A stretch of DNA of 64,000 nt from a virus. The DNA lies in the IMG/VR virus record IMGVR_UViG_3300028859_000011, positions 32,001 to 96,000 of that record. The stretch is one strand, 5' to 3'. Below, piece by piece: positions 19,623-46,213 of the stretch. Within the stretch, counting starts at the first letter, position 1, and every line of letters starts with the position of its first letter. Below the pieces are notes generated by a model. The model made no database searches. It saw only the letters and a program-made list of their open reading frames with translations, and was not told the origin of the DNA. The position numbers and the translations under genes were made by a program.

Positions 19623-19760
19623 AATATTATTTTTATTTGTATATATTAATTTTAATATATACAAATAAAAAATATGAGAATAGTAAGTATAAAGTATTTT
19701 TTAAGGCCAACTGCCCATTGTTCTAATGGCTGTTAGATATGGGCATCGGGAGATGCCCTT

Positions 19761-34059: not shown

Positions 34060-34159
34060 TTTGGTAGGTATAAATAAATATATTATCTTTGTTGATATAA
34101 AAATAAACAAAAATATTGAACAATTAATTTGGTAATTAGAAATAAATATATTATCTTTG
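34060..34159 (+). promoter_or_regulatory. Tandem duplicated Bacteroidota-type promoters
   Basis: TTTG-N20-TATCTTTG at 34060/34084 and 34128/34152, 68-bp period. Confidence 0.8.
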
Positions 34160-35539: not shown

Positions 35540-35570
35540 TTTGGTAATTCAAAAACTTTCCTTATCTTTG
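35540..35570 (+). promoter_or_regulatory. Bacteroidota-type promoter upstream of clpP
   Basis: TTTG-N19-TATCTTTG. Confidence 0.8.
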
Positions 35571-40328: not shown

Positions 40329-40360
40329 TTTGGTAAATAAAATAATATGTATTATCTTTG
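40329..40360 (+). promoter_or_regulatory. Bacteroidota-type promoter
   Basis: TTTG-N20-TATCTTTG. Confidence 0.8.
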
Positions 40361-42888: not shown

Positions 42889-43107
42889 ATGACATCAAAA
42901 GATATTGTAAATAAAATTTTATTTAATGATAATAGAATATTTTACCTTAACGTAATGCTAAATAGTAATAGATTGATTGATAAAGAATATGTTAATTTAA
43001 TATATCGTAAATTTGAACTCAAAAAAGAAAATAATATACTTTATAAAAAATTAGAAGAAAATAGATTAAGAATCGAAAAATTGAAAGAATTAAATAATAT
43101 ATCATGA
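42889..43107 (+). CDS. Hypothetical protein, RxxKL tail
   Basis: Ends LRIEKLKELNNIS. Confidence 0.55.
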   Translation: MTSKDIVNKILFNDNRIFYLNVMLNSNRLIDKEYVNLIYRKFELKKENNILYKKLEENRLRIEKLKELNNIS

Positions 43108-43319
43108 AATTTAAAGATATTGAAAATGAAATTGTATTTTTAGAGAAAAAAAGTTTATCTTTGGAATGAATACTTTATAATATAAGTTATAATACAATCG
43201 AATTCATTGAGATACGGGAAAAATTTGATAAACTAAATATATATTTAAAAGAAATAAAAGAAAAATTTGAATTAAATAAATTAAGAATTGAAAAATTAAA
43301 AGAATTGAATGATATATGA
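43104..43319 (+). pseudogene. RxxKL-tail ORF interrupted by an in-frame TGA
   Basis: MKFKDIE...SLE*ILYN...LRIEKLKELNDI; TGA at 43167-43169. Confidence 0.55.
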
Positions 43320-43672
43320 TTGATTATAAAAAAGATGTAAAATTATCAAATGAATTCAAAACAGTACACGAACAAATGCAAGATAAATTATATAAAAATG
43401 TAAGATTACTATGTAACGTCGAAACAAGACAAAAACAAATATACGTCACTTTATATAATGAAAAATATTTTAATTATGAATATCCTTATTTTGATGATCA
43501 TGACTTGATATATAAAGTAGATAATGAAGATTTCTATGAAAATTTTAAAAAAATAAGAAAAATAAAAAGAGATTATAATAATTCTTATAAACCAATAAAG
43601 TTTAAAACTGAATTTGAATGCTTAAAATATTTGAAATCTATCGGAATTGATGAAGTTGGTCCGAATAATTAA
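43316..43672 (+). CDS. Hypothetical protein
   Basis: Intact ORF. Confidence 0.55.
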   Translation: MIDYKKDVKLSNEFKTVHEQMQDKLYKNVRLLCNVETRQKQIYVTLYNEKYFNYEYPYFDDHDLIYKVDNEDFYENFKKIRKIKRDYNNSYKPIKFKTEFECLKYLKSIGIDEVGPNN

Positions 43673-43686
43673 TTAAAAATAAAAAT

Positions 43687-43908
43687 ATGAAACAAAAAAT
43701 TTTAGAAATATTAGGTAAGAATCATACTACGCCATGCGTATTCACAAATAACCAAGAAGTTGAAGCGATTTATACATATAAAAATGATGTATATTGCTTA
43801 GAAATGGGAGAAGATTTTCCTTTTGATGATGTTTCTGAAAAAGGACAAAAAAAGATTCTTGATGCTATTGTAAATAATGAATATAAAAAAGATAAAACTT
43901 TTCAATAA
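43687..43908 (+). CDS. Hypothetical protein
   Basis: Intact ORF. Confidence 0.55.
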   Translation: MKQKILEILGKNHTTPCVFTNNQEVEAIYTYKNDVYCLEMGEDFPFDDVSEKGQKKILDAIVNNEYKKDKTFQ

Positions 43909-43912
43909 AAAG

Positions 43913-43944
43913 TTTGGTGAATTGAAAACTTTTCCGTACTTTTG
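43913..43944 (+). promoter_or_regulatory. Bacteroidota-type promoter for the leader/tRNA-Leu unit
   Basis: TTTG (43913-16)-N20-TACTTTTG (43937-44). Confidence 0.75.
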
Positions 43945-43998
43945 TACTACATAATAAAAATAGAAAAAAATCATATTTTTTAAAGAATATATACTGAT

Positions 43999-44091
43999 AT
44001 GAAAAACTACAATAACATAATGAACTTGCTACTCTTAAACCTATTATTACAAAATAATCGGACTGAGAGTACTATGTCATATCTATTGTAA
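43999..44091 (+). CDS. Leucine-rich attenuator leader peptide (30 aa; alternative ATG at 44020)
   Basis: MKNYNNIMNLLLLNLLLQNNRTESTMSYLL; 7 Leu in 8 codons (TTG CTA CTC TTA AAC CTA TTA TTA). Confidence 0.85.
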   Translation: MKNYNNIMNLLLLNLLLQNNRTESTMSYLL

Positions 44092-44151
44092 CAAATAATA
44101 TAAGCATATTAAAAAGACCTCAGTCATTTATTTGATTGAGGTTTTTCTTTT
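44030..44151 (+). promoter_or_regulatory. Transcription attenuator with alternative 1:2, 2:3 and 3:4 pairings
   Basis: TACTCTTA(44030-37):TGAGAGTA(44064-71); GACTGAG(44061-67):CTCAGTC(44119-25); terminator 44112-44151. Confidence 0.8.
44112..44151 (+). terminator. Conditional intrinsic terminator (attenuator 3:4)
   Basis: AAAGACCTCAGTCA-TTTATT-TGATTGAGGTTTTT followed by CTTTT. Confidence 0.85.
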
Positions 44152-44161
44152 ATAATAAAAT

Positions 44162-44247
44162 GCTCTGGTGGTGAAACTGGCGAAACACGATACTTTTAAA
44201 AAGTATTACATTAAGAAACAATGCGGGTCCGAATCCCGCTCAGAGTA
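44162..44247 (+). tRNA. tRNA-Leu(TAA)
   Basis: Acceptor GCTCTGG/TCAGAGT, anticodon arm ATACT-TTTAAAA-AGTAT, long variable arm, A73, no encoded CCA. Confidence 0.85.
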
Positions 44248-44255
44248 CAAAAAAT

Positions 44256-44338
44256 GTTCCTGTGATGAAATTGGTAGTACATAAATTTCTTAAAAGAATT
44301 TGCCCACTGGCGTGTCGGTTCGAGTCCGACCAGGAATA
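44256..44338 (+). tRNA. tRNA-Leu(TAA), second divergent copy
   Basis: GTTCCTG/CAGGAAT, loop CTTAAAA, variable stem GCC/GGC, GGTTCGAGTCC T arm. Confidence 0.9.
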
Positions 44339-44349
44339 CAATAAAACAT

Positions 44350-44435
44350 GCTGATGTGGCGGAATGAATACGCGGCAGTCTAAGAAACTGTTTCTGAACA
44401 AAGTAAGAATGTGGGTTCAAGTCCCACCATCAGTA
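44350..44435 (+). tRNA. tRNA-Leu(AAG)
   Basis: GCTGATG/CATCAGT, anticodon arm GCAGT-CTAAGAA-ACTGT, long variable arm. Confidence 0.85.
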
Positions 44436-44442
44436 CAATAAT

Positions 44443-44516
44443 GACTGAGTGATGTAATTGGTAACCATGTCATCCTCAAAAGGTGAATTTTGTGGGTTCG
44501 ACTCCCATCTCAGTTA
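44443..44516 (+). tRNA. tRNA with CAA anticodon (Leu) and short variable region
   Basis: GACTGAG/CTCAGTT, TCATC-CTCAAAA-GGTGA, 5-nt variable loop ATTTT. Confidence 0.8.
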
Positions 44517-44524
44517 CAATACAT

Positions 44525-44614
44525 GTTCCAGTGGCGAAACTTGGTTGAGACGCGTTAGATTTAGGATCTAATACAGTTAATGACACACTGCGGGTCCAAA
44601 TCCCGCCTGGAATA
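44525..44614 (+). tRNA. tRNA-Leu(TAG)
   Basis: GTTCCAG/CTGGAAT, TTAGA-TTTAGGA-TCTAA, long variable arm. Confidence 0.88.
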
Positions 44615-44615
44615 C

Positions 44616-44660
44616 AAAGTGTGAGCCAATTTTATTAAAAAAATTGACTCACACTTTTTT
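44616..44660 (+). terminator. Terminator closing the tRNA array
   Basis: AAAGTGTGAG...CTCACACTTT followed by a T tract overlapping a TTTTATATATA motif. Confidence 0.75.
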
Positions 44661-44682
44661 ATATATACAATAAAAAAAGTAT

Positions 44683-45621
44683 ATGAATAAATATAATAAA
44701 GAAAAATTTGAAGAAGTTATTAAAAAATCATTTTCTTATTCAAGCACTTGCAAGAATATTGGATTAGTGCCAGTAGGAGGAAATATTCTCACAGTAAAAA
44801 AATATATTAAATTATATAATATAAACATTGATCATTTTACTGGGCAAGGATGGAATTTTGGAGATAATTATAAGCAAACAAAAAATGCTATACCATTAAA
44901 TGACATATTAGATGGTTTGCATCCATCATATGGCACAACTCATTTAAAGAAAAGATTAATTAAAGATAGACTAAAAGAAAATAGATGTGAAGAATGCGGG
45001 TTGACAGAATGGAATAATATGCCAATTGCTTTACAATTACATCATAAAGATGGTGATAGTACAAATCATAAATTTGAAAATTTAAAAATATTATGTCCAA
45101 ATTGTCACACACAAACAGATACATATGGATCTAAAAATAAAGGAACAGAGAAAACATATGATAAGATACAATTATTGGAATCTATTTCCAATTCCAAAAA
45201 TTACAGTGAAGTCAAAATAAAAATAGGATTAAAAAGAGGAGGTGATAATAATGTAATAAAAAATATCATGTTTGAATATGATATAAATTTTAATGACAGT
45301 GAAAAAATAAAAAGTATAATTTTAGAAGAAAAAGAATTAATAGAAAAAGAATTAATAGAAAAAGAAGAAATTCAAAATAAATCAACAAAAAAAATTAAAA
45401 TTAGAAAAAAATATCCATCAATAAAAAATATTTGCTCATGCGGCAAAGAAATTCAAACCAGATCAAATCAGTGCAATGAGTGTTATAGATTATCTGAAAG
45501 AAAAGTAATGAACAGACCAACTAAAGATGAATTAAGATTAATGATATCTGATACAAGTTTAGAAGCTGTTGGTAGAGTTTATGGTGTGACTGGCAATACA
45601 GTTAAGAAGTGGCTAAAATAA
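44683..45621 (+). mobile_element. HNH homing-type endonuclease
   Basis: CEECG...LQLHHKDGDSTNH..ENL.ILCPNCH; extra Zn ribbon (CSCG...C..C) and C-terminal HTH. Confidence 0.88.
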
Positions 45622-45675
45622 TGTCTTATATTGAAATGTCTAAATGAGATGGTTCGACTCCCACCTAAGTTACAA
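45622..45675 (+). pseudogene. Degenerate tRNA 3' remnant
   Basis: GGTTCGACTCCCACCTAAGTTACAA resembles the 3' end of the 44443 tRNA; no D or anticodon arm. Confidence 0.5.
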
Positions 45676-46213
45676 ATTAAATTTCTTTGATGCTATAATT
45701 GATTCCATATCAATTATAGAACTTGACCAATACTTCATTGATCCATCATCAGTTTTAACAATTCCTGGTCCGTCGTGAGGTCCAGGATTCATTTTTTTAA
45801 CTTCATAATCAATTGAAGCCCATCTAAAATTTTCAATTCTTTCTTTCTTTATTACTTTACACAATTCAGTATTATTCCAACCAAGTAAGCAATAATCTCC
45901 AATAGATGGTAGATTTTCCAGATCTTCAATTTTTTTAGAATAGCTTTTTATTTGTTCACGTTTAACTAAAAAATTGTTATTCCACAATTCATATTTATCA
46001 AATTTAACGTTATAGTATTCTGTGTGTTTCTATAGATATTATTTTACCTATTCTATATTTATAGTCAGTATCGTTTTTTCTAGGGGTAAAATATTCAGGT
46101 ATTTTAGATTCATAGAAATCTTCGTTGAGTCTGACGTAATCATTTATTTCTGGTTCTGAATCACGTGTAAATTCTTTTGTATTGTAGAATTCAATTTTTT
46201 TAATATGTTTCAT
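45670..46213 (-). pseudogene. Single CTS/KFNL-family gene split by a frameshift at an (AC)3A repeat
   Basis: MKHIKKIE... (46213) and ...KKFNL (45670) join with a one-frame shift between 46012 and 46029. Confidence 0.6.

Follow-up and report, generated by a model that had tools for sequence, protein, structure and literature searches.

We analyzed a window of 64,000 nt (bases 32001-96000 of the 125.5-kb IMG/VR virus record IMGVR_UViG_3300028859_000011), in which a short leucine-rich open reading frame (ORF) and a hairpin with a T tract precede five tRNA-Leu genes. Sequence comparison indicates that this leader is probably a ribosome-mediated (leader-peptide) transcription attenuator gating the phage tRNA-Leu operon. 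An original prediction, made from the letters of the window, had proposed such an attenuator, and the proposal was supported by the conservation of Leu leaders in other phages and by paralogous leaders that switch their codons with the tRNA genes that follow them. Computation showed the parts of the unit and how they are conserved, the alternative pairings, and, across the paralogues, an agreement of leader codons with tRNA identity. Coordinates refer to the + strand of the window unless another record is named.

Leader ORF, terminator, and tRNA-Leu genes

The leader ORF (43999-44091) contained 30 codons, with seven Leu codons among the eight codons from 10 to 17 (TTG CTA CTC TTA AAC CTA TTA TTA, 44026-44049), as had been claimed, and with two additional Leu codons directly before the stop codon. 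Leu accounted for 9 of the 29 residues of the leader peptide, compared with 7.8% in the proteome (p = 3e-4). The codons CTA, CTC, and TTG, which make up 6%, 1%, and 10% of the Leu codons of the phage, respectively, supplied six of these nine residues. The ORF had no Shine-Dalgarno (SD) sequence; its A/T-rich start context resembled that of the SD-less genes of the phage, and an SD core was found in 0 of the 104 long ORFs.

An intrinsic terminator between the leader and the tRNA genes was confirmed by a hairpin search at 44113-44155. The hairpin (44113-44146) consists of 14 pairs, four of them G-C, with a 6-nt loop, and is followed by TTTTTCTTTT. ARAGORN and Rfam concordantly identified the five predicted tRNA-Leu genes at 44162-44615 (46-54 bits), with the anticodons UAA (44162-44248), UAA (44256-44339), AAG (44350-44436), CAA (44443-44517), and UAG (44525-44615), and these were the only tRNA genes in the 125.5-kb record. 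The first of them begins 10 nt 3' of the terminator T tract, too close for a promoter of its own to fit in between, and the tRNAs must therefore arise by terminator read-through. Each of the four kinds of Leu codon in the control run had been said to be matched by a downstream anticodon. All of the anticodons were present, with the reservation that reading CUC by the AAG tRNA needs A34-to-inosine editing or wobble. The array is closed by a further hairpin and T tract at approximately 44617-44661, read from the sequence and kept in homologues L002-L005, which agrees with the operon terminator claimed at this position. The mir-3156 matches reported by Rfam on this closing hairpin were dismissed as hairpin-driven.

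Alternative pairings in the leader RNA

Three mutually exclusive pairings had been described for the leader RNA, and all of them exist: segment 1, on the Leu codons, with segment 2 (8 bp, -9.0 kcal/mol), segment 2 with segment 3 (-12.9 kcal/mol), and segment 3 with segment 4 in the terminator (-17.9 kcal/mol). Segment 2 (GACTGAG, 44061-44067) is the putative antiterminator strand, and segment 3 (CTCAGTC, 44119-44125) lies in the 5' arm of the terminator. The 2:3 duplex reached -13.5, compared with -6.0 ± 1.8 in dinucleotide shuffles, and an equally good duplex was obtained in 5 of 2000 shuffles. The 8 bp of the 1:2 pairing were found to belong to a longer hairpin, P1 (44030-44071), the putative anti-antiterminator, in which the Leu-codon arm (44030-44049) pairs with 44053-44071, including part of segment 2, and only the inner part of the 1:2 helix as originally drawn is conserved. 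P1 was returned by both the minimum free energy (MFE) fold and RNAalifold. The MFE fold also contained an outer helix, P0 (44008-44090), formed around P1 by codons 4-8 and the final codons of the ORF.

To fold the leader at its decision point, homologous leaders were cut just after segment 3, and the 28 nt around a ribosome on the Leu run were masked. With this stalled-ribosome footprint masked, segment 2 paired with segment 3 in all 12 homologues folded, and without the ribosome, 7 of the 12 folded into P0/P1 with segment 3 free. In these models, the ON state of the proposed switch thus appears robust.

We also applied a detector that is blind to composition, requiring a hairpin with a T tract, an upstream complement of the hairpin 5' arm, and a short ORF covering this complement. 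Among the 54 hairpin-plus-T sites of the 125.5-kb record, only two had both the upstream complement and the ORF, and one of the two was the Leu leader. The other (19741-19758) is a G+C-rich 7-bp hairpin with a 20-codon ORF and no nearby tRNA, and is probably due to chance.

Homologous Leu leaders in other phages

Relatives of the leader were sought with three anchors, namely a tRNA fragment, the nine N-terminal codons (as a degenerate pattern against viral and metagenome contigs), and segments 2, 3, and 4 only. These anchors were placed on different parts of the unit, so that the remaining parts are independent observations. Thirteen distinct homologous Leu leaders from viral and metagenome contigs were aligned (alignment A1), and an all-Leu tRNA array was found 3' of every Leu leader with enough downstream DNA. 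Another contig, L012, matched the N-terminal pattern, was unrelated beyond it, carried no tRNAs, and was rejected as a false positive. A blastn search of the GenBank phage collection returned only short tRNA-level matches and one promoter-region match (LR756502.1), with no close relative.

The original prediction depended on the Leu run and the pairings being conserved at homologous loci, and both were kept across the 13 leaders. The ORF was open in all 13, and the homologues kept six or seven Leu codons in 8-9 codons, with synonymous changes; at six core Leu positions, eight synonymous Leu codon types and two non-Leu types were observed. Six indel events were found inside the leader ORF, all of them multiples of 3 with the exception of a -1/+1 pair in L008, set 22 nt apart, and the C-terminal part of the L008 peptide is wholly different from that of the other homologues. 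Spacer indels 3' of the leader stop were of any length.

At the RNA level, ACCTCAGTC, the core of the terminator 5' arm and the partner of segment 2, was invariant in 13/13 leaders. Segment 2 was likewise kept in all 13 as GACTG[A/G]G, variable only at the purine of position 6, and the spacer and the terminator loop varied freely. The GAG of segment 2 is a rare Glu codon (9% of the Glu codons of the phage), and in L008 the motif was kept though it lies in another reading frame. The complementarity of segments 2 and 3 ranged from 7 to 12 bp across the homologues (12 bp in L013; 8 bp in L008, L016, and L026). Given the alignment alone, RNAalifold returned P1 and the terminator. Over P0, P1, and the terminator combined, the share of paired cells was 87%, compared with 38-46% when the partners were slid. 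For P1 alone, the proportion was 88.9%, with covariation at two pairs; for P0, it was approximately 84%, with 12 of 13 pairs present in the L011-type homologues.

These data also bear on the idea that the product of the ORF, a 30-residue micro-protein, is functional in itself and that its gene has its own terminator. In that case, the tRNAs would come from constitutive leakage through the terminator, and the many Leu residues would mark a hydrophobic peptide in place of a sensor. The peptide is conserved over most of its length in most homologues, and its N-terminal codons vary synonymously, which indicates protein-level selection, with the limit that part of the N-terminal conservation was imposed by the search pattern. 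We nevertheless regard this explanation as very unlikely, since it leaves unexplained the invariance of ACCTCAGTC, the retention of GACTG[A/G]G despite a rare codon and a frame shift, the constant association of the unit with tRNA-Leu arrays, and the change in composition of the paralogous peptides with each downstream tRNA cluster (described below). The completely different C-terminal part of the L008 peptide also speaks against it.

The identity between the window and L001 was 94% for the promoter and leader, 86% for the upstream ORF, and at most 75% for any tRNA pair. Judged from these values, the leader appears to outlast its tRNA cargo, with the tRNA genes turning over much faster. The order and content of the arrays also differed: L001 (array at L001:7106-7378) is without the AAG tRNA, and L013 has a GAG tRNA instead. 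In L026, a degenerate tRNA-like stretch with acceptor-like and T-arm-like ends follows the attenuator hairpin (L026:6222-6335), for which ARAGORN makes no call.

Five relatives (L008, L011, L015, L019, and L026), which form one branch of the family, carry a conserved 77-codon ORF between the attenuator hairpin and the tRNAs. Because of this position, the ORF would be co-regulated with the tRNA-Leu genes. Its product in L008 (L008:1381-1614, - strand) had no Pfam match.

Leaders preceding other tRNA clusters

As a check, the original prediction had suggested surveying jumbo phage relatives, first for short leader ORFs that precede tRNA clusters and second for cases in which another amino acid goes with its own tRNAs. 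Both searches were positive, the first with the 13 versions of the Leu leader and the second with paralogous leaders whose composition matches their clusters (p from 4e-4 to 2e-7). The L008 contig (501 kb, 70% complete) contained 49 tRNA matches in several clusters and the L002 contig (235 kb) contained 14, and the clusters are sorted by amino acid according to ARAGORN. In the tRNA-cluster loci, the composition-blind detector reported only units heading tRNA clusters.

A tRNA-Gln triplet is preceded by an 18-codon ORF with five consecutive Gln codons and an N-terminus like that of the Leu leader, and its stop codon overlaps 9 nt that are complementary to the 5' arm of the next hairpin. Cognate residues made up 5/17 of the Gln leader (p = 4e-5), 19/30 of a leader heading Lys/Phe/Ser/Trp/His tRNAs (p = 8e-6), and 22/35 of a leader heading Arg/Pro/Ala/Gly/Val/Thr tRNAs (p = 2e-7), next to the 9/29 of the Leu leader. 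For the Met/Glu/Asp/Asn/Tyr/Cys/Ile set, two units were found, with 29/37 (p = 1e-5) and 22/29 (p = 4e-4) cognate residues. When leader compositions were compared with the amino acids of other clusters, every mismatched pairing was non-significant, and the cognate enrichment was seen only in the frame set by the leader ATG. The five amino-acid sets found in genomes G001 and G002 together cover all 20 amino acids. The Lys/Phe/Ser/Trp/His leader was kept in two additional contigs with the same tRNA kinds downstream. The published 642-kb genome of an uncultured phage, LR756502.1, shares the promoter type and carries, at locus L033 (LR756502.1:420373-423467), a leader rich in Gln and Asp, 3' of which lie two tRNA-Pro, three tRNA-Asp, and four tRNA-Gln genes. 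A His-rich short ORF (L029:216-145) was tried as a His leader and rejected, being antisense within a coding region with no hairpin or tRNA after it.

In every unit, a hairpin with a T tract stands between leader and tRNAs, together with a conserved competitor for its 5' arm. The geometry of the paralogues is simpler than that of the Leu unit: only a ribosome positioned over segment 2, close to the ORF end, keeps the antiterminator from forming. That leader codons track tRNA identity favors a sensor read by the ribosome, because neither a micro-protein nor an RNA-only element would predict it.

An element acting through RNA only, either a protein- or tRNA-binding (T-box-like) leader or a pre-tRNA processing or stability element with an incidental ORF, would agree with the large amount of conserved secondary structure, namely P0, P1, and the terminator hairpin, and with a nucleotide conservation that is very high and exceeds that of the flanking genes. 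It is hard to reconcile with an ORF that is open in all homologues with indels in threes, and with an enrichment confined to the frame of the ATG. In the region 43000-46000, neither the Rfam Leu_leader model nor the T-box model gave a match at E up to 1, and no other Rfam leader family did so except rnk_leader, a sub-threshold match at 44047-44153 (27.7 bits compared with a cut-off of 50, E = 0.07) that was dismissed as hairpin-driven. Such an element is therefore highly improbable as the explanation of this locus. A chance ORF with chance complementarity beside an ordinary terminator deserves practically no credence: short ORFs and Leu codons are common at 22% G+C, but the 13 conserved versions, the significant shuffle tests, and the composition-matched paralogues contradict it.

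Taken together, the leaders may be modules of a genome-wide, self-tuning tRNA supply in phages of approximately 0.6-0.7 Mb, in which a nearly full tRNA set is divided into amino-acid-sorted operons, each gated by a codon-matched attenuator, a view that we find fairly plausible and lean towards. If true, the phage would gauge decoding speed per codon family and top up only those tRNAs that are short. The shortage could come from host tRNA depletion, from anticodon nucleases, or from an AT-rich codon demand that outruns the host pool.

Proposed mechanism and opposing evidence

In the proposed mechanism, transcription would start at the promoter at 43913-43944, and the 30-codon leader would be translated while it is transcribed, with transcription and translation presumably coupled. 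When Leu-tRNA is plentiful, the ribosome would pass the Leu run, and 44030-44049 would re-pair with 44053-44071 to form P1, closed by P0; P1 would form before segment 3 exists. As an alternative route to the OFF state, the ribosome itself might sit over segment 2. Either way, segment 2 would be unavailable, the terminator would form, and a short leader RNA without tRNA would be released. When Leu decoding is slow, the ribosome would stall on codons 10-17 and cover the 5' arm of P1, so that the free segment 2 could pair with CTCAGTC (44119-44125), the terminator would not form, and transcription would read through into the five tRNA-Leu genes. The tRNA-Leu products would then restore Leu decoding, which would make the loop self-regulating. 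Stalling, rather than another use of the ORF, would be what flips the switch, and the direction of the response and its natural trigger, which may be starvation or host tRNA-cleaving defenses, are likewise inferred.

Several observations weigh against this attenuator. Covariation in P0 and P1 is modest, with five pairs changed on both sides, some of them probably single-clade events. At the antiterminator, compensatory change cannot lend support because both of its strands are invariant. The look-up of covariation in relatives that had been proposed thus yielded some pairs in P0/P1 and none, as none is possible, in the antiterminator, whose support consists of conservation and excess stability. 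Furthermore, the antiterminator was already present in the minimum-energy fold of the free RNA in 5 of 12 homologues, and the OFF state would consequently rest on folding kinetics or ribosome position. The caveat that the leader stop lies past segment 2 was valid: the distance is 21 nt, and a ribosome waiting at the stop leaves segment 2 uncovered, unlike in the trp leader and the Gln paralogue. The whole peptide is fairly conserved, and not just its Leu run, which a functional micro-protein would fit too. Finally, in L025 a promoter immediately precedes the tRNA-Gln genes, with no leader in between, and this type of control is accordingly not universal.

The stop-codon geometry of the Leu unit, which is not that of the textbook, and the ambiguous free-RNA folds of 5/12 homologues could also be accommodated by a translated Leu sensor with another output, such as Rho-type polarity, RNase access, or pre-tRNA processing, or with a reversed sign. 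We attach only slight probability to this variant. A canonical hairpin with a T tract lies exactly between leader and tRNAs in every unit, with a conserved competitor for its 5' arm, and a reversed sign would cut the tRNA supply precisely when decoding is slow.

RNA-sequencing libraries of two studies contained contigs on 43600-45000 that cover only 44001-44168, from the leader to the terminator. These contigs hint weakly that a short leader RNA is abundant. They can neither prove transcription nor show starts, ends, strand, or level, DNA may be present in the libraries, and one contig (X21) looked chimeric; nothing follows from the missing cover over the tRNAs and flanks.

Comparison with known systems and significance

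Leader-peptide attenuation is known for amino-acid biosynthesis and for a few synthetase or resistance genes. In leuL of E. coli and Salmonella, as in trpL, hisL, and pheL, a run of codons for a single amino acid is followed by anti-antiterminator, antiterminator, and terminator pairings, and leuL uses rare Leu codons. The phage Leu leader resembles leuL in its single-amino-acid codon run, its predicted mutually exclusive pairings, and its rare Leu codons. It differs in its target, since tRNA genes instead of enzymes of biosynthesis would be controlled and the operon would make the very molecule that is sensed, in that it belongs to a phage of a probable Bacteroidota host and has no SD sequence, in its lack of a match to Rfam Leu_leader, and in its stop codon well past segment 2. 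The likeness to the Rfam Leu_leader family is, by this analogy, one of function and not of family membership.

In the ilvGMEDA, ilvBN, and thr leaders, codons for several amino acids are mixed in one leader. The paralogous phage leaders are similar in this respect, although their mix mirrors the kinds of downstream tRNAs, up to seven, and the unit of the window is monovalent. The pheM leader of pheST, encoding Phe-tRNA synthetase, is an attenuator over a translation component dedicated to the amino acid that is sensed. Its target is a synthetase gene, which codes for protein and belongs to a cellular genome, whereas the phage unit would control tRNA genes. T-box leaders bind uncharged tRNA without a ribosome, through Stem I and the conserved T-box sequence, and control synthetase and amino-acid genes. 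The phage unit would resemble them in responding to the state of one tRNA species by a choice between antiterminator and terminator, but it has an ORF and no T-box match.

A full-text literature search found no account of tRNA genes under leader-peptide attenuation, in agreement with the earlier statement that no described case was known. The new element would be the target, namely viral tRNA genes controlled by the translation of their own codons. Such attenuation would close a direct feedback between decoding speed and tRNA supply in a virus and would explain how giant phages regulate large tRNA sets. It would also provide a sequence rule by which leader composition predicts the content of a tRNA cluster. 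Because the trigger of each sensor is testable, the units bear on why phages carry tRNAs, whether for codon-usage compensation or for escape from host tRNA-targeting defenses. To our knowledge, few regulatory parts are known in Bacteroidota, and if working, these modules of approximately 200 nt could serve there as codon-specific sensors of translation capacity.

Promoter, source genome, and flanking genes

A Bacteroidota-type promoter had been claimed upstream of the leader, and the pattern (TTTG, approximately 20 nt, TAnnTTTG) was matched at 43913-43944, with a -33 TTTG (43913-43916) and a -7 TACTTTTG (43937-43944), 20 nt apart. The window contained 11 matches to this pattern, compared with 5.4 expected, and 11 were reached by 1 of 100 shuffles. 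Five of the 11 begin with TTTGGT, and each of these directly precedes a co-oriented ORF on the + strand. The further TTTGGT-type promoters (TTTGGTAA ... TATCTTTG) are located at 34060-34091, 34128-34159, 35540-35570, and 40329-40360, each just 5' of a + strand ORF. A scan for the sigma-70 consensus gave 66 sites in comparison with 71 in shuffles and is uninformative for this type of host. The TTTGGT..TAnnTTTG type also heads paralogous leaders in L029, L033, and others.

Between the promoter and the start codon, an A-rich/T-rich 5' motif (43956-43994) was found that recurs in the Leu leaders as well as in those of the paralogous loci L029, L030, and L031. Its layout of an A run, a short spacer, a T run, and an ATATATA-like box occurs in all tRNA-operon leaders. 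In L015 and L019, the motif lies upstream of a second promoter-like site.

CheckV puts the 125.5-kb record at 18% completeness, and the full genome would then measure several hundred kb. The phage DNA has a G+C content of 22.5%, the DNA runs holding the stretch come from peat and freshwater metagenomes, and the host is probably a member of Bacteroidota.

The small flanking ORFs had no Pfam match, and the two are unlike each other. Bacterial tRNA-Leu normally has a long variable arm, which the 75-nt tRNA-Leu (CAA) at 44443-44517 is without; the 5' acceptor strand of this tRNA is the same heptamer as leader segment 2, GACTGAG. In the 501-kb relative G001, a tRNA with the anticodon CTA (L032:485-556) would read the TAG stop codon, a hint that this codon is reassigned or suppressed in a part of the G001 genome. 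Directly 3' of the tRNA operon of the window, an ORF of 312 residues (44683-45621) has a sub-threshold match to an HNH endonuclease. In addition, L001, L015, L019, and L026 have a gap of approximately 0.9-1.2 kb between the CAA tRNA and the rest of the array, which may hold a mobile gene like this ORF.

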